40,001 nucleotides of DNA, from positions 5,128 to 45,128 of the forward strand of contig JAUNDF010000002.1 of NCBI GenBank assembly GCA_030526225.1. Reading direction: 5' to 3'. The first letter of the stretch is position 1, and each line of letters begins with the position of its first letter. The position numbers and the translations under genes were made by a program. This document shows, piece after piece, positions 153 to 29,500 of this stretch. The notes below the pieces were generated by a model. It saw only the letters and a program-made list of their open reading frames with translations, did no database searches and was not told the origin of the DNA. The stretch comes from Clostridia bacterium. Its GTDB lineage: Bacteria; Bacillota; Clostridia; Christensenellales; Aristaeellaceae.

Positions 153-1388
153 TTAGTGATGCATGCGGCCCTTGCCGAACAGGCTGCGGCGGCCGCCGTA
201 GGGGGTCATGCTGCCTGCCACCTGCGGGGTCAGGGCAGGGGCGGTCAGGCTGCGGTTCTTGGTAACGTTCAGCACCAGACCCACGCCCAGCATGTTGGTC
301 ATCATGTTGGAGCCGCCGTAGGAAATAAACGGCAGCGGGATGCCGGTAATGGGCATCAGGCCCATGGTCATGCCCATGTTCTCAAACACGTGGAACAGCA
401 GCATGCCCATCACGCCGATAATCACCAGCCGGCCGAACTTGTCGCGGGTGTAGGCGGACAGGTACAGCATCCGCAGGATAATCAGGAAGAAGACAATCAT
501 GATGCCCACACAGCCCACAAAGCCCCATGCCTCGCCGATGGTGGCGAAGATGAAGTCCGTCCAGTCGGCGGGCACGTAGTTCAGCTGGCTGATGGAGCCA
601 TCCACAAACATGCCGATGCCGGTCAGGCCGCCGGAGCCGATGGCTGTCTGGCTCTGCAAAACCTGATACGCGTCGGTGGAGGAATACAATTCGGGGTTGA
701 TGAAGGCCAGAATGCGGGCCAGACGGTAGCTGTCCGCGTTGGTGGCCACGGTAAAGCCGTACAGGGCGGCGATGCCGATGACGGCCACACCGGCCATGCC
801 CATCAGCAGACGGAAGTCCACGTTGGCAAAGAACAGCATCACGGCGAAGAAGAAAATAATCACCAGAACGCTGCCCATTTCGCCGGACATCAGGGTAACA
901 AAGGTGGGGATGGCGACAATCAGCATCACCCGGAAAAACTCCTGCACATTGCCCATGGGCTTTTCCGACTGGGAAAGAACACGGGACAGCATCAGAATCA
1001 TGGCCAGCTTGATGAACTATGACGGCTGCAGCGTCATGCCCCAAATGATGTCCAGCCACGCCTTCACGCCCTCGGCACGGTTCAGCACCCACACAAGGGT
1101 CAGGAAGATGGTGCCGCCCCAGTAGAAGATGGGCGTGTAGCGGCGCAGAAAGTCGTAGGGAATCAGGAGCAGTACGGAAAGCACCACAGGACCCAGCGCC
1201 AGGAATACGCACTGTTTCACCGCGTAGGAGGATTCCACGATGCGGTTGAGCAGTGAGCCTGTGGGGGCCGAGTCCACGGTGTAGGTAGCGACACACACTG
1301 CCAGCACACCGAAGACGGCCAGACTGAATACAAGCAGAATCAGCGGCACGTCCACATGGGCCCGTGAATGTCTGTTTTCAACGATCAA
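153..1388 (-). CDS. rodA: SEDS-family peptidoglycan polymerase RodA/FtsW, with one in-frame TAG at 1017-1019
   Basis: ORFs 1017-1388 and 153-1001 share a frame (1388-1001=387). Read on the minus strand the junction is ...GMTLQPS-TAG-FIKLAMILML. It carries the SEDS motifs QPS(E)F and PFISYGGS. The start is a TTG overlapping the minD TGA (TTGA). The true stop is TAA. Confidence 0.85.
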
Positions 1389-2194
1389 AGCTTGTTGACC
1401 TCCTTGTGCTTGCGGCCAAAGAGCCGGGAGAAGAAGCCGGGCTTGCGCACGCCGTAGGCGGGGAAGGGCTCATCCATGCCCTCCATGCGCGCGGCAATGC
1501 GGGTGAGGGCATAGCGGGCCTCGCAGTCGCACTGCATCAGCGGCTTGTGGTTAATCAGGCTCCGGTATACCACCGGGTCCCGGGGCACCTCGCCCAAAAG
1601 GGGCAGGTCCAGGGTCTGGGATACCACGGCGGCGGAGTACATTTCCCCTGCATCAATCAGCTCGCTGTCCAGCATGTTGACAACAAGGCGCGGGGAGGGC
1701 ATGTCCTTGCCCTGCAGCACGGAGGCGGTGCGCTCCACGTTGCGGATGCACACATCGTCCGGGGTGCTGATGAGGATGGTTTCGTCCGTGTGCTTGTTCA
1801 GCAGCCCGCGAAGGCCGCGCTCGATGCCGGCGGGGCAGTCAATGAGCACATGGTCAAAGCTGAGCTTCAGCTGGCCAATCAGCTTCATAAATGCCTTTTT
1901 GTCCAGATCCTTGCTGCGGGCAAACTGGGCGGCGGGGACGAGGAACAGGTTGGTGTAATCGCCGTGGCGAATCAGGGCCTAATCCATGCGGCAGCGCTTT
2001 TCCAGCACATCCAGCAAATCGTAGACCACCCGGTTTTCCACGCCCAGAATCACATCCTGATCGCGCAGGCCGATATCGGCATCCACAATGCAGCAGCGGC
2101 AGCCCCGCTGGCTGAGCGCGGCGCCCAGCGCGGCCGTTACGGTGGATTTGCCAACGCCGCCCTTGCCGGATGCAATGATCCATGCTTTGCCCAT
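1385..2194 (-). CDS. minD: Septum site-determining ATPase MinD, with one in-frame TAG at 1979-1981
   Basis: Deviant Walker A SGKGGVGKS, Walker B region LIDCPAG and a C-terminal amphipathic GFFSRLFG are present. ORFs 1979-2194 and 1385-1888 share a frame. The junction ...EKRCRMD-TAG-ALIRHGDYTNLFLVPAAQ... is collinear with B. subtilis MinD EGRCKMHQALVKDKRF. Stop is TGA. Confidence 0.85.
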
Positions 2195-13416: not shown

Positions 13417-13959
13417 TCAGGTGAAAACAGGGTCGATTTCTTCCTTCAGCGCATCCCGCAGCCATGCGGCAATCTCCGGCTCGTTCAGGGGCAGACCGCC
13501 CAGCACGGCACGGACTTCGCGGGTGTCGAAGGTGCATTCACCCCGGGGCGATTTCCCCTCAAAGCGGAAATCCGGGGCAAGGGGGTTGGTAATCATCAGG
13601 CTCAGCAGTGTGCCGGATAAATCCCCCAAGGGCAGACAGTCGATGCATTTGGTGTTCATGGTTACGGTAAGCGCTGTGCCCACCCCAACCTTGGACGTGA
13701 TGACCAGGTCGCCCTCGGCCAGCCGGGCGTTTTCCAGCATCATGGGGATGCCGAGGCCGACCTTGCGCGTGGTTCTGGTGGTGGCAAAGGGGCTGGTGAC
13801 CCGGCTGAGCAGCTCGGGGTCCATGCCCTTTCCGTTATCCTCCAGCACCATGGTCAGCCAGCCGCTTTCGTCGATGGAAAGGCGGATGACAATCAGTGAC
13901 GCGCCGGCGGATATGCTGTTTTGGGTCAGGTCCAGCAAATGCAGGGACAAATCACGCAT
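13417..13959 (-). CDS. GHKL/histidine-kinase-like ATPase domain protein
   Basis: 180 aa with EDNGKGM and GLGIP (N and G boxes). It is embedded between the hydrogenase subunit genes. Confidence 0.8.
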   Translation of the reverse strand: MRDLSLHLLDLTQNSISAGASLIVIRLSIDESGWLTMVLEDNGKGMDPELLSRVTSPFATTRTTRKVGLGIPMMLENARLAEGDLVITSKVGVGTALTVTMNTKCIDCLPLGDLSGTLLSLMITNPLAPDFRFEGKSPRGECTFDTREVRAVLGGLPLNEPEIAAWLRDALKEEIDPVFT

Positions 13960-13971
13960 GGCAAATCAACC

Positions 13972-14439
13972 TCAGCGATACTTGGCCACAATGGCGGGAA
14001 TCTCGTCGGGGGTCAGGCGGCCGTAAACCTCGTCGTTAATCATCATGACGGGGGCCAGACCGCAGGCACCCAGACAGCGGGTGGCGTTGAGGGTGAAGCG
14101 GCCGTCGGCGGTTGTCTTGCCCACGGGGACCTTCAGCTCCTCGCTCAGCTTGTCCAGCACCTTCTGGGAGCCCTTGACGTAGCAGGCGGTACCGAGGCAT
14201 ACGCCCACGATATACTGGCCCTTGGGCTCCAGAGAGAACTGTGCGTAGAACGTGGCAACGCCGTAAACCTCGGCCAGGGTGGTGCCCAGACCGTCGGCGA
14301 TGATCTGCTGCACATCCATGGGTACATAGCCGAAGATTTCCTGTGCAGCCTGCAGGACGGGCATCAGTGCGCCGGGAACATCCTTATGCTTGGCAATGGC
14401 TTCCTGCAGAAGCGCGTATTTTTCCTTCTGATCAGGCAT
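13972..14439 (-). CDS. hydC: NuoE-like [2Fe-2S] subunit of the hydrogenase (HydC/HndA)
   Basis: 155 aa with CLGTACYVKG and CLGACGLAPVMMIND. Confidence 0.9.
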   Translation of the reverse strand: MPDQKEKYALLQEAIAKHKDVPGALMPVLQAAQEIFGYVPMDVQQIIADGLGTTLAEVYGVATFYAQFSLEPKGQYIVGVCLGTACYVKGSQKVLDKLSEELKVPVGKTTADGRFTLNATRCLGACGLAPVMMINDEVYGRLTPDEIPAIVAKYR

Positions 14440-14632
14440 GATGTAATTACCTCCTTGAATCGGGCGGCTTGACGGATGGATGCCGTCACAGCCTAAATCG
14501 TTTTAATTTTAACATAAATTTGGCAAAAAGGGAAATGGAAAAACACAAAAAATCCGCAATATCAGCAAAAAAATACAAAAAACATAGAAAATCACGAAAA
14601 AATCATACCGGATTACCCAAAAAGAGGAAGAA
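14440..14632 (-). promoter_or_regulatory. AT-rich leader/promoter region for the hydC-hydA structural genes
   Basis: This is the only AT-rich gap in the locus. The minus strand has an extended -10, TGtTAAAAT (forward 14506-14514), with only a weak -35. Phased T-tracts lie upstream (forward A-tracts 14567-14602), and a small hairpin gacgg-atggatg-ccgtc sits at 14471-14487. Confidence 0.3.
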
Positions 14633-15346
14633 TCAGCGGATGATTTCCTTCCCGGAGGCGGCCAGCAGGGTATCGAACAGACCGCCGGCGGAAAACCTGT
14701 CCGTGGGGAAATCGAACACCGCCTATTGAATCTTGCCCAATTGGTGGGCATCGGAGGAATGCAGCACCGCTCTGCCTGCAAGGATTTTCTCATTGATGGG
14801 CAGCTGAGGGGAAACCTCCACCAGCCCGTAGTGCGGCTCATCAGGCATCAGGCCCAGATTGACCAGCAGGCCGTTGCTGCCCCGGTTGATGTGGGCCGGC
14901 ACCGCAATGCCCCCTCTGCGGCGAACCTCTGCGGTGCATTCCTCAAGGGATAAATCCGTGGCGCCGATGAGCATCCTGTCCTCGGTGAAGCGAATGACAT
15001 CATCCGTGTCGCGAACATACTGGGTGCCGAAGAAGTCGGGCATGTTGGGCATATCCGGCAGATGGGAGGAGAAGAATTCCCCGGCATCCACCGCAGCCTC
15101 CACGGTGCGGAAGTACCCCAGCAGGTGCACCTCCTCCCGGGTGGTAATCTCCAGCCCCGGCAGCAGAATCAGCCCGAAATAATCAGCCGCTTCCTTGACA
15201 TAGGGCAGATTGAGGGCGGAGTTGTGGTCGGTGACGGCGATGGCCTGCAGCCCTTTGATGTGAGCCATGCCGCAGATGTTGGCGGGGGTCATGTCCTCAT
15301 CTGCGCAGGGGGACAGGCAGGAGTGAATGTGCAGGTCAACCAGCAA
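14633..15346 (-). CDS. PHP (polymerase/histidinol phosphatase) domain protein; the apparent TAG stop at 14723-14725 is read through to TGA at 14633
   Basis: DLHIHS, VTDHNS and HSSDAH motifs are present. After ...HQLGKIQ-TAG the frame stays open for 29 codons (AVFDFPTDRFSAGGLFDTLLAASGKEIIR) and ends at TGA. Confidence 0.7.
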
Positions 15347-15352
15347 GGCGTG

Positions 15353-15706
15353 TCAGTCCTCTCTGTTGTGCCCGGGCAGCCCTGCGGCGGAGAGCAGCGC
15401 GCACAGCTCGTAGGCGGTCAGGTCGCTTTCCAGCACGGTGATGTCTTCATCGATGGCCTTTTTCAGCGTGGCCTCCTCAATGTGGACCCCCTCGGGCAGG
15501 ATGACGGCAGCCATTTCCATCAGCGCGGCCACGGCAATCACGTTCATGTGGGTCTGGACGGTAATCCACGCCATGCCGGACTGGCCGTGGGCCATGACCC
15601 AGCTGAGCAGGTCGCAGGCATAGCCGCAGGTCACCGGTCGGGATTTGTCGGTATCGGGGGTTACATCCACCGCGCGGGTCAGGGCAGTCAATTCGGCAAT
15701 GGTCAT
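15353..15706 (-). CDS. DRTGG domain protein
   Basis: 117 aa, paralogous in size and position to 17510-17863. A typical companion of HydS-like genes. Confidence 0.7.
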   Translation of the reverse strand: MTIAELTALTRAVDVTPDTDKSRPVTCGYACDLLSWVMAHGQSGMAWITVQTHMNVIAVAALMEMAAVILPEGVHIEEATLKKAIDEDITVLESDLTAYELCALLSAAGLPGHNRED

Positions 15707-15728
15707 GGGGCATCAGTCCTTCCCATCT

Positions 15729-17027
15729 TTACTGTCTCGTATTCTGTGCCAGGGCCACCATTTGCTGGGCCATGGCGCGCAGGTGATCCTTCAGGATGTG
15801 GATGCAGTCCATCTCGCTGGCGTAGCCCCGGACGATATCCTCGGCGAAGGTGCGGCAGGTGGGGGAGCCGCAGGAGCCGCAGTCGTAGCCGGGCAGGCGG
15901 TTGATGGTTTCGTCAATCTGCTCCATTTTCCGCATGGCCTCGATGATGTCGTCGTCCAGCCGCATGGCACCGTTGGGCAGCACCACATCGGGTGCGTGCA
16001 GCTGGATGCCCTCCAGCAGGTTCAGCTCCACCGGCTTTTCCGGCAGCAGGGCCGGGTCGCCTTCAATCAGCCGGCGGACGATATTGCGGGCCACATAGTT
16101 GTTTTCAAAATTCAGCGGACCGCCCACGCAGCCGCCGGTGCAGGCGTTGCCCTCGAAGAAATCAAGGTCGCTGAGCTTGCCGTCCTCAATCTCCTAAAGC
16201 ACACGGATGACGTTCTCAATCCCGTCCACGGACATGCTGCTGCTGTGGCCCACCGCATTGGCCTCGCCGCCGCTGTTGGCCCAGCCCACGCCCAGGGCGC
16301 TGGCGGTGACCAGCGTGTCATCCTCTTCGGCTTGCTTGGTGTGGCTTGAGAGCAGACCGTAGATTTCCAGCACGCTGATGGCCCCGTCCACCGCGGAGGT
16401 GGGATGGCCGATGGGGGAGCGGATGGCGGTCACCTTGGCCGGGCAGGGAGTGATGAAAAAGCAGCCGATGTCCTCCTCCGGCACGCGGTTTTTCCTTGCG
16501 AACGCCCGCTTGGCCATCATGGCGGCAACCTCCATGGGCTGGCGCACATCCACGAGGTTGTCAATCAAATCGGGGAAGCGCACCTGAATCAGCCGCACAA
16601 TGGCCGGGCAGGCGGAGGAAATCAGCGGCTTGGGGCAATCAGGCTCCCGCAGCTTTTCCTGAATGACGCGGGTGACCACATCGGCACCCCGGGCCACCTC
16701 AAACACATCGTCAAAGCCCATTTTCTTCAGCCCCGCCAGCACCGGAGAGATGCTGTGCAGCGTTTTAAACTGCCCATACAGGCTGGGGGCCGGCAGGGCG
16801 ATTTTGTATTTGAAGGCGCTGATGGTGCTCAGCGGGTCCGTTACCGCCACCTTGGCGTGATGGTCGCACACGCGGATGCATTCGCCGCAGTCGATGCACA
16901 GCTCGTCGATGATATGCGCTCTGCCGCCGCGCACGCGGATGGCCTCCGTGGGGCAGCGCTTGAGGCAATTGGTGCAGCCCCTGCATTTATCCGCCAGAAG
17001 CGTGACAGAGTGGAAGCGTTTTTCCAT
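15729..17027 (-). CDS. HydS-like (putative sensory) [FeFe]-hydrogenase-domain protein, with one in-frame TAG at 16194-16196
   Basis: It has two N-terminal ferredoxin motifs. The H-cluster-type motifs are SSACPAIV (Ala at the relay-Cys position), TPCPAKV and ACTGGCVGG. A C-terminal CGSCGSPTC Fe-S domain follows. ORFs 16194-17027 and 15729-16127 share a frame (900 nt apart). The junction reads ...NVIRVL-TAG-EIEDGKLSDLDFFEGNACTGGCVGG. Confidence 0.8.
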
Positions 17028-17064
17028 TTTGGTTCAGTCCCTTTCGGATTTTGGTACAGCGTGG

Positions 17065-17487
17065 TCAATGCAGGGCAAAGCCCATCTCGATGGTGGTGCC
17101 CACCCCCACCTGACTTTCAATAGAGAAGGTGGAGGCGTTGCGCTTCATGTTGGGCAGGCCCATGCCGGCGCCAAAGCCCAGGGCCCGTGCCTGATCGCTG
17201 GCGGTGGAGTAGCCCTCGGTCATGGCCTTGTCAATATCCGGGATGCCCGGGCCCACATCCTTGCTGATGAGGGTAATCATGTCCGGGTCCACCCGAAGGG
17301 TCAGGGTGCCGCCCATGGAGTGGATGACCAGATTCAGCTCCACCTCGTAGCAGGATACGGAGATGTGCCGCAGCACCTCGGCGTTGATGCCCAGCTGCTT
17401 CAGCTTGCGCTTGATGGCCGTGGAGGCCTGACCGGCAGCGGCGAAATCCCCCGCTTCCACATTGAATACCTGTTCCAGAATGGCCAT
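17065..17487 (-). CDS. Anti-sigma-factor-like serine kinase / GHKL ATPase
   Basis: 140 aa with DVGPGIPD and GFGAGMGLPN. Confidence 0.75.
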   Translation of the reverse strand: MAILEQVFNVEAGDFAAAGQASTAIKRKLKQLGINAEVLRHISVSCYEVELNLVIHSMGGTLTLRVDPDMITLISKDVGPGIPDIDKAMTEGYSTASDQARALGFGAGMGLPNMKRNASTFSIESQVGVGTTIEMGFALH

Positions 17488-17509
17488 GGTGATGCTCTCC
17501 TTTCCTGTA

Positions 17510-17863
17510 TCAGTCTGCCTGACGGGAGCCGGGCAGATGGCGCAGGTACAGCTCCCCGCAGGAGGTGTAGGTGGTCATGGGCGTGGAAATCACCGCCAGC
17601 CCTGCCTCCCGGGCAAGGGTCAGCATTTCCTCGCTGGGCTGCTTGCCCCGGCTGAATACAATGCAGACCGCATCCAGCATTTCGGCGGTAATCATCACCT
17701 GGGGATTAATCAGCCCCGTAATCAGCACCGCCTTTTCATGGGCAAAGGCCAGCGCATCGCTCATCAGGTCCGCCCCGCAGGCGCAAAGGACCTCCTCGCC
17801 CAGCATGTCCTCGCCGGCCAGCAGCTTGCCGTGCAAAATCTCTCTGATTTCTCCGATGGTCAT
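17510..17863 (-). CDS. DRTGG domain protein
   Basis: 117 aa with AVLITGLINPQV...IVFSRGKQP...GLAVISTPMTTY. First gene of the regulatory module. Confidence 0.75.
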   Translation of the reverse strand: MTIGEIREILHGKLLAGEDMLGEEVLCACGADLMSDALAFAHEKAVLITGLINPQVMITAEMLDAVCIVFSRGKQPSEEMLTLAREAGLAVISTPMTTYTSCGELYLRHLPGSRQAD

Positions 17864-21999: not shown

Positions 22000-23039
22000 C
22001 AGTTCAGCACCGCCGCTTTCATCCCGCCCCAGCGGGTCGTTTGGGATACCAGCTGCCGCAGCCCCTGCAGCATGGCGGGGGTGGGCTGCTGGGTGAGCAT
22101 GGAGGCCAGCACCTCCTGCATATCACGCATACCAACGCCCTGCTTGGCCAGAATGCGCAAATCCTGCACGGCCTCATCCTCGTTGGTTTCCGGGCGCACG
22201 GCATCCTGAATCAGACCAATCATCTGCAGCGTGGTTTCTGCCTCTTCAGGCAGGATGCCCGCCACGGCGCTGAGCAGCGTCATTTCGTCCATTCTGGGGG
22301 GCAGGCTGCTGCCCATGGCGGCAATGAAGGGCTCCGGCTCCGCAAGGCCCGGGTGCAAAAGAAACCGGCGGCCGTCCATGCGGCAGATAAAGTCACAGCT
22401 GATGTGCAGATACCGCTGGCACAGGCGGATGTCATCGGGGTCATCGGTCTCCATGGCATCCTGCACCAGATGCTCCAGCGCCTCCTCAAAGGGGACCACG
22501 CCGCGTATGTACAGCAGACCCCGCAGCGTCATGTCAAAGCGCATCAGGCGCTCGCGCAGCTCCTTGTGCACGTCATCGAAAATCATCTCGGCCACGGAGG
22601 GCACCAGCTACGGGGACATGCGCAGGAACAGCCGCTCGTCATCAACCCATTCAAGGTAGCACCACAGCCGCCGCACCAGCGACTCGGCAGGGAGGGCATC
22701 CTCCATGTCTGTCAATTCGGCCCGGCCGCCGCCCACAATCAGCTTTTCCAGCAGCAGATGCTCGGGGAGGGTGACCAGCGCCGTTTCCACCGGAAGGTTT
22801 TCGATGACCATATCCCGCAGCATGCTGACGGTATGCAGCCGCCTTTCCCGGGGGAACTCCTGGGCAGCATGGCTGATGGACCACAGCTGCTCGGCGCGGC
22901 TGTCATCCTGTAAAGCGAATAAATCAAAATCCGGCAACCCGGAAAGCCGGCTTTCGCAGGCCTCCAGCTGTCGGAGATGCAGGACAGACATGGTCTTGTC
23001 CGCCCAGTGATCATACCGAACATTGTTTTCCCGAAGCAT
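21999..23039 (-). CDS. Hypothetical protein (346 codons), with one in-frame TAG at 22608-22610
   Basis: ORFs 22608-23039 and 21999-22604 share a frame (435 nt apart). The junction reads ...ERLFLRMSP-TAG-LVPSVAEMIFDD. A strong RBS, AAAGGAGAACAA, precedes the ATG at 23039. There is no RBS or start for the second half. Stop is TGA. Confidence 0.65.
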
Positions 23040-24470: not shown

Positions 24471-26348
24471 ATGGTGCGATATCTGTTCCTGTTCGGGGAT
24501 GCTGCGCTGCGCCTTACCCGTGTTTCCCTGTGGGCGGATGAGAGCGGCGCCGTATGCGCCATCCCCGGGGATGATGATGAAATCCGTGTGGTGCACGTGG
24601 GGCTGAATCCCCCGGATGAAGCACTGCAGAAGCGGCTGGCGCTGTACGGTGCCTTCGGCAGCATGGCGGACGGAAGCCCCTGCCGGGTGTCCTTTGTCAG
24701 CCTTTGCCCCCGGCTGCCCGGGGGGAAGCAGTCCCTTCAGGGGGCAGCCGTACCGCAGGAGGCACTGCTGTACCGCGCCCTGTTCGGGGAAGAAGAGGAA
24801 GACCTGCAGGCATTGATGGCCCGCCACAGCGAGGCCGCCGAGGCAGTGCTGCGCCGCTGGCTGACCGGCGGAAGCGACCCTGCGCTGAAGGATGCACTGG
24901 ACGACATCCGTGATGCGGCGGAAAGCTGCGGCGCGCAGGTACTGCTGTGCGCTCAGGGGGATGACGGCTTTGCCTGTGCCGGCATGATGACCATGCTGGA
25001 TACGCTGGCGCAGATGAAGCAGCAGTCCCGGGGCTACCTGAAGCTGGGGGCCATGGCTCTTCTGCCCGATGGAGAGAAGAATGGTGCCGGTCAGCTGGTC
25101 AATGCGCTGGCAGACCGGGCGGAAACCGGCGTGCCGGATGTGGTGTCCCTGATGGGCTGCCCCGGCTGGCAGGGCGGCGCGCAGGCTGATTTTATGGACC
25201 TGCCCGCCGCCGCACTGATGCTGGATTTCTTTGCGCAGATGGATATCCCGCGGGAACCGCAGGTGCATATGCTGCATCTGGCGGATTCCCTGTACACCGC
25301 CGATTTGCTCCCGGGGGCTGCCATGGCAGGCTATCAGGCGCTGGTGAAGGCATCGCTGCTGTATCGCTATGAAATGCTGCCCGTGATTCGGGAGCGGCTG
25401 GCATCTCCGTCCCTACTGAAGGACAGGCAGCGGGGCTGGTATGCCGCCGGCTTCGGTGCAGTGCGCAAGCTGGATGAAAACCACCGGCAGGAGACCATCC
25501 GCAGGGCGGAGCAGCTGGCTGAACTGCTGAAGCTGTACACCGAGGACATGGCGCAGATTGCCGATACGGTCCCTGCCGCCCTCAGTGCCGGAGACAAGCG
25601 CGCCTCTGCCATGCAGGAGGCGGTGAAGAACTACCGTGCGCTGCTGGAAGCCGCGGGTGAGCTGGCGGATATCGAGCGCACCATGAAGGCATACAATCTG
25701 CAGGATGACGGTGCAGTGGTCCGCGGCAAGGGTCCGGATGATTTTGCCGCGCGTCTATTGCGGGACGCAGCAGAAAAGCGCAAAGAGCTGCAGCAGCTGC
25801 GCCAAGTGCAGGCATCGCTGGACAAGACCATCGGCGGCATGGGCAAGCTGATGCTGATGGACCGCATGCTGGCAGGCATCCGCCGGGCATTGGCCGTGGA
25901 GGAAAAGGAAGCGGCCCGCCGGGAGATGATGATTGCGCAGATTGAGCGGGACAACCCCGGCACCCTTGAGGAAATGGAGCAGCGCCGGGTGCCTCTCAAT
26001 AGGCTGGCCATGCACATTCAAAAGCTGCGCAGCCAGCAGGAATATCTGGAAAAGGAACGGCAGGAGGCGGAAGAAACACGCCTGTGGGCCGAAGCACCGG
26101 AGGTGGAACCGGCCTGCACCGTGCTGCCCGGCGCTGCCGCGCTGGATGATTTCCGTAAGCGGGCGGTGCAAATCCGCAAGGACAGCGAGCTGTATCAGCT
26201 GCTGGATGACCTGCTGCCCGAATGCACACCCTGCCGCACGGCAGAAAAGCTGTTGGGCGGCATCAGCCCGGCACAGACCGGCGATGAGGCACTGCATCAA
26301 CTGATGGCACAGCTGTGCCGCATGTTCAGGGGAGAGGAGGCGCGATGA
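24471..26348 (+). CDS. Large uncharacterised protein A (625 aa; globular N-terminal half, charged coiled-coil-like C-terminal half)
   Basis: The ATG at 24471 follows GAAGGGGG, and an in-frame TAA lies at 24441. No family was recognised. The stop overlaps the start of the next gene (ATGA). Confidence 0.7.
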   Translation: MVRYLFLFGDAALRLTRVSLWADESGAVCAIPGDDDEIRVVHVGLNPPDEALQKRLALYGAFGSMADGSPCRVSFVSLCPRLPGGKQSLQGAAVPQEALLYRALFGEEEEDLQALMARHSEAAEAVLRRWLTGGSDPALKDALDDIRDAAESCGAQVLLCAQGDDGFACAGMMTMLDTLAQMKQQSRGYLKLGAMALLPDGEKNGAGQLVNALADRAETGVPDVVSLMGCPGWQGGAQADFMDLPAAALMLDFFAQMDIPREPQVHMLHLADSLYTADLLPGAAMAGYQALVKASLLYRYEMLPVIRERLASPSLLKDRQRGWYAAGFGAVRKLDENHRQETIRRAEQLAELLKLYTEDMAQIADTVPAALSAGDKRASAMQEAVKNYRALLEAAGELADIERTMKAYNLQDDGAVVRGKGPDDFAARLLRDAAEKRKELQQLRQVQASLDKTIGGMGKLMLMDRMLAGIRRALAVEEKEAARREMMIAQIERDNPGTLEEMEQRRVPLNRLAMHIQKLRSQQEYLEKERQEAEETRLWAEAPEVEPACTVLPGAAALDDFRKRAVQIRKDSELYQLLDDLLPECTPCRTAEKLLGGISPAQTGDEALHQLMAQLCRMFRGEEAR

Positions 26349-29300
26349 TGGAGGAAAAGATGACAGCCCGAACCGGGGAGCAGACAGCCGACCGTCTGCT
26401 GCCCTCCTTCAGCATGCTTCCGGTGTGCGATATCCCCGCAGACCAGCCCACGGGTGTGGTGGGCATCGGCCACGGCAGCAGCCGCTGGCTCCGCCGTCTG
26501 GCCGACCGCCTGGGCGGCACCGGCATGACCTATGCGGCCAAAGAAAAGCTGGCCGGGGCCATCCGGGACAAGGGCGAGGCATACACCTGCTGGCGGGGAA
26601 TGCTGGCCATGCTGCTCCTGTGGGATTTGCACCGTGATGCGCCCCAAGCCTTGGAGGCCGTTTGCTGGGACAAGGGCACGCCTTTGGCCGCCATGCTGCT
26701 GGAAGCCTCCGGTCTGCAGGACAGCGCCGCCTTTGGGGAGAAGCTGTGCGTGATGACCCTTCGTCAGGGCGGCAGACAGCTGCCTGTGGCCATTCCCGAC
26801 CGGGAGGCACTGCTGGTGCCCGCCGTGGATGCATCCCTTGACAGCGACGTGATTCCCCCGTGGGTCACATGGTTTGACCGGGATGAGGGCAAAATGCAGG
26901 ACCCCGTGGGGCTGATGAACGAAACGGAGCGGGAGGTGCTGGTCAAGCGGCTGCAGCTGTTCCTGCAGGCGTATGGCGCGGAGGAAAGCGCCCTGTCACA
27001 GGCGGTGCGCCAATTGGCAGAGGACACGGCAAAAATCAACCGCGATGCCAGAGAAGCCCTGTCAGACAGCAAGGGCAGTGCCGTGCAGGAGCTGGCATTG
27101 CGCATTGAGGCCATCCTTGGGCTGAAGGGTCACGAGGCTTTCCCGGGGCTGACCGGCGACAGCGCGGTGATGCAGACCGGCGGCACCAATCCGGTGCTGA
27201 GTGCATTGCACATCCCCCACAGCGCGGACCGCAAGCTGGTGTGCTGCACCACCTACCGCTGGAACGGCGTTCCCTTTGCCCGGGATGCCGAGCGCTTTGT
27301 CTACGAGCCTACGGGCCATGCTGACGAAGCCGCCGCGCTGGATGAACTGAGCCTGGAGCTGGACCTTGCGGCGGAATATATCCCCCACTGGAACGAGCAT
27401 CTGTCCGGGGGGCTCAGCGAGCTGTGGGAAAAGTGCAAGCGCAAAAACCGCCTGTATCCCGCGGTGACCAAAACGGTGTTCCAGCTGTTTGGCCGTGCGG
27501 ACAAGCAGAAGGAAACAAAGCCCGTGGTGCTGAACATTCCCGAGGAACGGGGTCTTGCCGCCGCCGGGTATCTGATGAAAACACTGCTTGGCGATGATGC
27601 GGCCCAGCTGCCCCAGAAGCTGTTCAGCGACCGGCTGACGCTGGTGCCCTTTGCCGCCCTTGCGGATGGTGCGCTGGCACAGGCCGCCTTTGTCCGCTAT
27701 GATGAGGACGGCAGCCCCCTGTGCGCTCTGCCGCCCCTGTCTGCGGCGCTCACCGCCTTTTTGACCGAGCGGGCTCACATCACCCTGCAGCCGGAGGGGC
27801 TGCGCTTCCTGCCTGCCGATGAGGAGGGCAGCCTGTAGGTGCGCCTGATGCTCCGCGGCGCGGGGGAGGTGTCCTTCAGCCGCGTATATCGGGCAGAGGA
27901 TATCATCACCCTGAACCATGACAGCATGCCCACGGTCAGCGTGTGGCCCGGCGTGGCTTTCCCTGAGGGGGACTGGCAGTATTATCTGCTTTAGGCCTTC
28001 CGCGGCGAAGAAGGCATCACCTTCAGCGTGTGGGAAAAGGATGGCTGGGTGCACTGCGCTCAGGGTGCGGAGGAGCGCATTTTCCGTGGGGCAAGGTGCA
28101 GCCGTTATCCCCGATTGATGGCCGTCAGCATGGACGGACTCTCCTTGGGTGCACTGCCCGATACGCCCCCTGTGTGCGATGTGCCCTCCGGCGGCGAAGC
28201 GGCGGCGGGCATCGACTTCGGCTCCTCTGCCGCGGCCACGGCCATCCTGATGGGCGACAGCATGATGAGCATCACCGGGGCAGATTGCCGCCGGGTGCTG
28301 ATGCAGGGCGAATTTGCGCCGGTGCCTGTGCTGGCCCAGCCGGTGATGCCCTCGGCACTGCAGCTGTGCGCCCGTCAGCTGCCCCATCGCCCCCAGCCTA
28401 TGCTGGACAGCCGCATCCCCTCCGAGGCGGATACGCTGGCAGAGGGCGCGGAAAACATCATCGACAACATCCCGTGGCGGGTGGAAAATGACCGGCAGGA
28501 AATGATTCGCCTGTACATGCTCCAGCTGATGCTCACCACGGCGCTGGCCTGCCGCCTTCAGGGTGCCGACCGCATCACGTGGCGCTTTGCCCTGCCCGAC
28601 AGCATGGCTTAGGCCGGCAAGGCATCGCTGATGAACCAGCTGTCCTACCTGACGGATGAACTGGCGGACATGACAGGGCTGCCTGCCCAAAAGGAGCCGC
28701 CGGTGATGGTCCCCGGCTGCCGTGCTCAGATGCTGTACTTCCGCGAGCGCAGGGATGTGAATGTGCGCGGCGGGTGCATCCTGCTGGATGTGGGCAGCAA
28801 CGGTGCCTCCGTGGCCCTGTGGCTTCGGGGCAGGCAGGCCCCTGTGCTGCAGATGGCGCTGCCTCTGGGCGTGGACCTGATGCTGGAAACCATGGCGGAT
28901 GAAAGCCAGATCAGCGCACTGCTGCACCTGCACGGCGCCTTCCTGATGCTCCTTTCCGGCGTGATGGCCCAGAGCGTGTACATGACCTCCTCCGTCAGCC
29001 ATCTGCTGCCGGAAACCATGCCGGTGTGCATGGCGGGACGGGGCGGCTCCTTGCTGCAGCGCATTGACGAAATGGACCGCATCCGCCTGCTGGACTTTAT
29101 GCGCCCGGCCATGGAGGAGACCCATCCCACCGTATCCGCCGGCTATGTGTTCAGCGAATACCCGAAGATGGAAACAGCCGCCGGCCTTGTGCTGTATGCT
29201 CCGGAGCAGGAGGAGGACACCGCCTCTGCCGGCATTGCCATGCGGACCCCGTGGCCGCCGGAGCAGCTGCTGATTGGCTTTATGCGCCTGTTCGGCGTGC

Positions 29301-29500
29301 GCTTCCCCTGGGAGGCTGCCGCCATGTTCCCGCAGATGTTTGCCCGGGACGGCTACCTGTCCGTGGACGGCGAAAACCTGCTGATGGCGCTGGCGGAGGA
29401 ATGCATGACCGGCCAGCCCCTGACGGACGGGCTTTTGCGGGTGATTGCACAGCTGCGCACCATGGCCTTCCCCATGGGCGGCAGCATGGATGAAATGTGA
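26345..29500 (+). CDS. Very large uncharacterised protein B (about 1051 codons) with a C-terminal actin/Hsp70-fold (ASKHA) ATPase domain; three in-frame TAGs (27836, 27992, 28610)
   Basis: Track ORFs 26315-27838, 28028-28612 and 28631-29500, plus the 51-codon gap segment, are all in one frame (start positions all 2 mod 3). I verified codon by codon that TAG is the only interruption. ASKHA-like motifs are AAGIDFGSS (from 28208), ILLDVGSNGASVAL (about 28787) and CMAGRGGSLL (about 29030). These parallel the MreB motifs in this window. Confidence 0.7.

Follow-up and report, generated by a model that had tools for sequence, protein, structure and literature searches.

An in-frame TAG in a PHP-domain gene and a candidate bacterial code reading UAG as glutamate

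The PHP-domain gene on the minus strand of the window, i.e. of the whole 40,001-nucleotide stretch of DNA analysed here, very probably encodes a protein of 237 aa in which codon 208, a TAG, is translated, most likely as glutamate, and which ends at a TGA 29 codons further on. The likely reason why this TAG can be read through is a changed genetic code in the lineage, whose release factor 1 (RF1) gene has been deleted. We put the probability of this reading at roughly 0.85. For the lineage as a whole, an uncultured one within the gut-type Clostridia (Christensenellales-like), we consider it fairly likely that a natural bacterial code in which UAG means glutamate is seen near its origin, with RF1 gone, a TAG codon that prefers a preceding A, and a relative that has RF1 and ends about 1 % of its genes with TAG. 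The features of the gene are as follows.

14726..15346, minus strand: first 207 codons of the PHP gene, with a TTG start, HxH and SSDAH motifs, a PF02811 match and a start residue shared by homologs
14723..14725, minus strand: in-frame TAG, codon 208, a Glu column in homologs and most likely decoded as Glu
14636..14722, minus strand: C-terminal tail AVFDFPTDRFSAGGLFDTLLAASGKEIIR, 29 codons, with a conserved motif, coding statistics and an ordered model
14633..14635, minus strand: TGA, probably the real PHP terminator, with a drop in GC content and codon score directly 3′ of it
14440..14632, minus strand: AT-rich intergenic spacer of 193 bp (GC 35 %) before the NuoE-like hydrogenase subunit gene (14439-13975)

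The PHP protein and its C-terminal tail

Translation confirmed the frame described in an earlier, sequence-only reading of this DNA: from the TTG start at 15346, 207 codons lead to ...SSDAHQLGKIQ and the TAG at 14725-14723, after which the frame stays open for AVFDFPTDRFSAGGLFDTLLAASGKEIIR up to the TGA at 14635-14633. The ORF thus measures 207 aa when translated with table 11, or 237 aa with the TAG read. The protein matches Pfam PF02811 with 28.5 bits (cut-off 26.4), and its aligned homologs start at the same residue, with MLVDLH or MFVDLH. Across 32 aligned PHP sequences, H6, H8, D40-H41, E66, H74, H152, D199 and H201 are invariant, and the His and Asp residues among them are putative metal sites. 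An AlphaFold model of the 237 aa protein (mean pLDDT 83, pTM 0.85) found its best Foldseek matches in 3e0f, 2anu, 5zb8 and 7ug9 (E values from 4e-9 to 1e-6, TM 0.5-0.63), all of which are PHP phosphoesterases. While the fold and the N-terminal HxH motif are shared with these PF02811 proteins (BAD_1165, 3e0f; TM0559, 2anu; RNase AM, 7ug9; EndoQ, 5zb8), sequence identity is just 13-20 %, and the subfamily found in the window is stand-alone and roughly 230 aa long.

The 237 aa product was used as query in a database search, in which 119 homologs came up; they measure 229-240 aa and cover 96-100 % of its length, in line with the earlier expectation that a read-through product of about 237 aa would have the usual length of such proteins. 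The sole 207 aa entry in the same search was the truncated PHP call from the genome itself. The tail consensus in the homologs reads E-AVFDFPT-x-RFSLGGLFD-x-L, with the position after RFS variable in the looser motif RFS-x-GGLFD, and five tail residues, i.e. R217, F218, S219, G222 and L223, are invariant in 31 aligned homologs and all retained in the window's protein. Conservation of the tail in these alignments matches that of the PHP body. We also collected 65 genomic orthologs that cover the TAG site, from named MAGs of uncultured Clostridia, Christensenellales and Oscillospiraceae, mostly of the ruminant gut. Their Glu codon at the TAG-equivalent position is followed by 18-38 further codons (median 23) and a TGA (34 orthologs), TAA (24) or TAG (7) terminator, so that the short C-terminal segment proposed to follow the last His motif is indeed present in orthologs. 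The contrary outcome named beforehand, i.e. orthologs stopping right after ...IQ, was seen in none of the homologs and orthologs aligned.

The composition of the extension is normal, as had been noted, with a GC content of 63 %, a GC3 of 83 % and a codon log-odds score of 0.51 in frame versus -0.99 and -0.48 in the remaining two frames. This score corresponds to the 43rd percentile among in-frame 29-codon windows of the same genome and was matched by none of 5,000 windows in the +1 frame. In the spacer 3′ of the TGA, the GC content is 35 % and codon scores are negative. The description of the tail as 'amphipathic-helix-like' turned out to be roughly right: the model places a helix at 220-231 and, besides it, a short strand at 211-214, with a pLDDT of 78-87 for the block and disorder limited to the last four residues. 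The significance of the tail derives from conservation and coding statistics, since a run of 29 open codons alone is not significant. These comparisons support the view that the 29-codon tail belongs to the PHP protein, which would then comprise 237 aa in all; standard annotation would cut it by 30 residues, the invariant RFS-x-GGL segment included.

The gene lies in a minus-strand locus with the order DRTGG protein, GHKL ATPase, HydS-like [FeFe]-hydrogenase-type protein, 117 aa protein, PHP protein, 193 bp spacer, NuoE-like protein, GHKL protein, 124 aa protein, NuoF-like protein and HydA. The part from the DRTGG to the PHP gene (DRTGG, GHKL ATPase, HydS-like, 117 aa protein, PHP; window 13417-17863, minus strand) is conserved as a module, with hydABC-type genes downstream of it. 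PHP orthologs are found at most 1.5 kb from a HydS-like gene in 15 relatives, and the module is putatively involved in H2 sensing.

TAG usage across the genome

The genome assembly comprises 2.19 Mb in 136 contigs, with a GC content of 57 % and a completeness of 79.8 %. Genome-wide, 79 % of the coding frames that reach a TAG continue as coding sequence past it, compared to 13 % for TAA and 7 % for TGA. About 110 in-frame TAGs are flanked on both sides by coding sequence, while the same procedure yielded two in the nearest relative, G014, and one in a further relative, G013 (1.1 Mb each). As a sense codon, TAG accounts for about 1 in 2,700 codons and is spread along genes with no enrichment at their 3′ ends, and UAA is still the commonest terminator. 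Of the genes compared, 335 of the 336 that could be aligned to G014 through the C-terminus show no TAG near their end.

The same picture emerges within the window, where many pairs of well-coding frames abut across a TAG. It had been noted that no TAG in the window other than that of the PHP gene looks like a terminator, and this was borne out, as every other TAG ending a well-coding frame is immediately followed, in frame, by another long run of coding sequence, the continuation being short only at the PHP gene. It had also been argued that the PHP TAG fits the read-through pattern and is no exception to it, which agrees with the conserved tail and with the Glu found in the TAG column. With the PHP TAG resolved as a sense codon, the rule that no gene in the window is terminated by TAG therefore holds without exception. 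Single Pfam domains span the TAG in rodA, minD, the HydS-like gene, a histidine kinase gene and a Na/Pi transporter gene; for three of these genes, the positions in the window are given here.

1017..1019, minus strand: in-frame TAG in the rodA/ftsW-family gene, where the QPSE motif has its Glu; the Pfam domain spans the TAG, and 23/23 orthologs carry Glu
1979..1981, minus strand: in-frame TAG in the minD-type gene; the domain spans the TAG, and orthologs carry Gln in 17/25 cases and Glu in none
16194..16196, minus strand: in-frame TAG in the HydS-like [FeFe]-hydrogenase-type gene (17027-15732); Fe_hyd_lg_C spans the TAG, and orthologs carry Glu in 17/17 relatives

The TAG-richest genes are those for long sensor histidine kinases and hybrid kinases, with two to three TAGs each, which fits a rare codon that is tolerated in weakly expressed genes. 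Two further ORFs of the window, one of 1061 aa with three in-frame TAGs (26315-29500, plus strand) and one of 346 aa with a single in-frame TAG (22002-23039, minus strand), had no Pfam match at an E value of 0.001 or better.

The base preceding the codon is strongly biased. Genome-wide, in-frame TAGs are preceded by A in 52-53 % and by C in 2 % of cases, as compared to 7 % and 36-39 %, respectively, for GAG codons, and the bias persists when the preceding codon is four-fold degenerate (chi-square p = 4e-118). The PHP gene itself provides an example in the window, with caa at 14726-14728. The tetranucleotide CTAG occurs 37 times per Mb in this genome versus 142 and 180 times in two relatives; the scarcity of C before TAG, though not the strong preference for A, fits this genome-wide depletion.

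Release factor 1, decoding tRNA and the residue inserted at TAG

RF1 is the only release factor that recognises UAG. A profile search for its gene, prfA, gave no match in the genome (assembly 79.8 % complete), while prfA scored above the curated cut-off in 139 of 151 sampled genomes of the family. The gene order is prmC-prfA-tsaC in the relatives G006, G013 and G015, and prfA directly adjoins tsaC in G014, G141 and G005. In the genome under study, prmC ends with a TGA and is followed 30 bp further on the same contig by tsaC, with no prfA in between. The cognate release factor gene is thus gone from a syntenic site at which all six examined relatives carry it, although a translocated copy is possible in an assembly that is 80 % complete. 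The release-factor methyltransferase gene prmC, which was kept beside the deletion (L127:1667-2509, plus strand, contig C109), contains an in-frame TAG of its own. RF2 was not found in the assembly either, and since the assembly is 79.8 % complete and lacks RF2 as well as several ordinary tRNAs, little weight can be given to absences other than that of prfA from its syntenic site. Five other genomes with no RF1-level match (G036, G100, G094, G151 and G072) were considered as sharers of the code and dismissed as assembly gaps, as prmC is missing from all five, and tsaC from G094 too; no internal TAG was seen in the first 20 kb of G036.

None of the 43 tRNA genes of the assembly has a CUA anticodon, and ARAGORN gave no credible CUA tRNA at default or lowered thresholds; the tRNA set is itself incomplete, with tRNA-Tyr and tRNA-Ile among the missing species. 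One low-threshold CUA candidate on contig C130 proved to be a mispaired artefact. Searching 150 genomes of the family with a Glu-type tRNA pattern carrying a CUA anticodon gave no exact match, just ordinary CUC and UUC tRNAs, and a scan of metagenomes for the CUA anticodon arm gave six chance matches and no tRNAs. The genome does encode GluQRS, a YadB-type truncated glutamyl-tRNA synthetase paralog (L243:1348-2268, minus strand, contig C1; 308 bits versus a cut-off of 277). As a lineage-specific charging enzyme it was rejected, since the gene, found in only 5 of the 61 genera sampled from the family, is also present in the nearest standard-code relatives, G014 and G005; it is conceivable that it served as a pre-adaptation.

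Which amino acid is inserted can be judged from conserved columns. All aligned database homologs (19/19 and 31/31) have Glu in the TAG column of the PHP protein, and at the TAG site of the 65 genomic orthologs the codon is GAG in 36 and GAA in 25, i.e. Glu in 61/65, and TAG in none. Glu is also the residue at the conserved RodA QPSE and HydS-like columns listed above and at the IGL-x-VHVEL site of gatB. For a broader tally, all coding frames were aligned to 1.1 Mb each of G014 and G013, and the residues opposite TAG were compared with the profiles of ordinary codons; because a strict filter against G013 left only seven sites, the filter was relaxed and the closer relative added. Against G014, 25 TAG sites gave E 10, R 3 and then others (lnL -63.1 for E versus -75.7 for Q), while against G013 26 sites under the relaxed filter gave E 10, T 4, Q 4 and D 3 (lnL -57.9 versus -66.2). 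As controls, GAG was opposite E in 65 % of cases, and CAG opposite Q in 52 % and opposite E in 9 %. The share of Glu in the TAG tallies is therefore a plurality of about 40 % and no majority, as compared to the 65 % of ordinary GAG. Judging from these alignments, TAG is likely decoded as Glu, with Gln or a Gln/Glu mixture still in play.

In the latter case, UAG would be read either by a near-cognate tRNA-Gln(CUG) or by a tRNA with a CUA anticodon that receives Glu, part of which GatCAB then amidates, and the length of the PHP protein would remain 237 aa, with Gln at position 208. Near-cognate reading of UAG by tRNA-Gln(CUG) occurs in RF1-deleted E. coli, and with no dedicated CUA tRNA found in the assembly, with Gln as the second-best residue in both tallies and with gatB present (its IGL-TAG-VHVEL site included), so that a transamidation route exists, there is something to be said for Gln. 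The MinD column, with Gln in 17/25 relatives, points the same way, but the four closest relatives differ there (R, Q, Y, H), whereas the invariant columns of PHP (61/65), RodA and HydS-like proteins are all Glu and the log-likelihood gap of 8 to 13 favours Glu. We therefore regard decoding as Gln, in whole or in part, as rather improbable.

Considerably less probable still is that the TAG is a true stop, left by a recent nonsense mutation that would give a 207-residue PHP protein without the conserved tail, or that the TAGs are consensus errors for GAG. The evidence for TAG does come from one assembly, i.e. a single consensus sequence, a metagenome scan for the PHP TAG site in further samples gave no match, and the absence of RF2 is a sign of incompleteness. 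But neither mutation nor error would produce about 110 in-frame TAGs with TAA and TGA at the background set by adjacent same-frame genes, remove prfA cleanly between prmC and tsaC, create a strong synonymous context bias before TAG or clear TAG from gene ends, and neither fits a tail that retains its five invariant residues and full coding statistics. As codon specificity, prfA deletion, context bias and the lack of TAG at gene ends agree, an assembly artefact is unlikely.

Pyrrolysine, which some Bacillota insert at UAG, or a Pyl/Sec-type recoding of special sites by a local signal, as the A bias before TAG could suggest, can practically be dismissed: the genome search found no PylS (best PylS_Cterm match 26.7 bits versus a cut-off of 178), there is no tRNA-Pyl in the assembly, TAGs occur in unrelated genes of every kind and align with Glu and not Lys, and with RF1 deleted there would be no competition to overcome.

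Taken together, the RF1 gene is deleted, TAG has gone from gene ends, and it has come back as a rare sense codon, chiefly where relatives carry GAG or GAA, with a CUA-anticodon tRNA of glutamate identity, whose gene is not in the assembly, as the presumable decoder. The route was probably codon capture, given that the nearest relative keeps RF1 with only about 1 % TAG terminators. In G014, prfA is present and TAG ends just 4 of 354 aligned genes, which fits a loss of TAG terminators before the loss of RF1; in G013, TAG ends 16 of 198 aligned genes.

Relation to known codes and significance

Bacterial reassignments of UGA include UGA = Trp in Mycoplasmatales, some endosymbionts and Eggerthellaceae, and UGA = Gly in Absconditabacteria/Gracilibacteria (NCBI tables 4 and 25). 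According to Shulgina and Eddy, every code change known from bacteria reassigns UGA (PMC8629427), and a 2026 paper on Eggerthellaceae discusses stop reassignment in bacteria in terms of UGA and RF2, with loss of RF2 and a changed tRNA as its signature (PMC13462651). The genome studied here shares with these codes a genome-wide change from stop to sense, the loss of the cognate release-factor gene and the disappearance of the codon from gene ends. In contrast, the codon is UAG, the release factor RF1 and the amino acid probably Glu, the genome, with at least 2.2 Mb and 57 % GC, is not tiny and not rich in AT, and the decoding tRNA is not in the assembly.

The same assignment is found in eukaryotic nuclear codes (PMC12153298, PMC10553269). 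Peritrich ciliates (table 30), Blastocrithidia nonstop (UAR = Glu) and Oligohymenophorea sp. PL0344 (UAA = Lys, UAG = Glu) share both codon and amino acid with the code proposed here, whereas in eukaryotes the change involves eRF1 and UAA is usually altered along with UAG, while the present genome keeps UAA as its commonest terminator. TAG recoding is also described for gut phages (bioRxiv 10.1101/2021.08.26.457843, PMC10607447), for which Gln is the residue assigned in the literature. Like this genome, code 15-like gut phages (crAss-like, Lak, phAss-1) use TAG as a sense codon in gut-microbiome DNA. They carry their own suppressor tRNAs, whereas the TAGs of the present genome are found in housekeeping genes of the chromosome (rodA, minD, gatB, prmC and the hydrogenase locus) and the host prfA is deleted. 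Deletion of RF1 frees UAG for sense decoding in engineered E. coli (PMC4434889, PMC4333366). C321.deltaA and related E. coli are man-made and read UAG with added or near-cognate tRNAs, and the present genome would be their natural counterpart. A full-text literature search, which left most subscription journals outside its reach, found no report of a bacterial reassignment of UAG to Glu.

The code change is put forward, on genomic grounds, as a candidate new form of stop-codon reassignment. In practical terms, standard annotation would split or shorten about a hundred further genes of this genome in addition to the PHP gene. If the proposed reading is true, the lineage would be a natural case of a bacterium without RF1 in which UAG means Glu, i.e. 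a new code, and a possible source of a natural UAG-decoding tRNA/synthetase pair. It would also provide a test case for the codon-capture model, with close relatives apparently at an intermediate stage.
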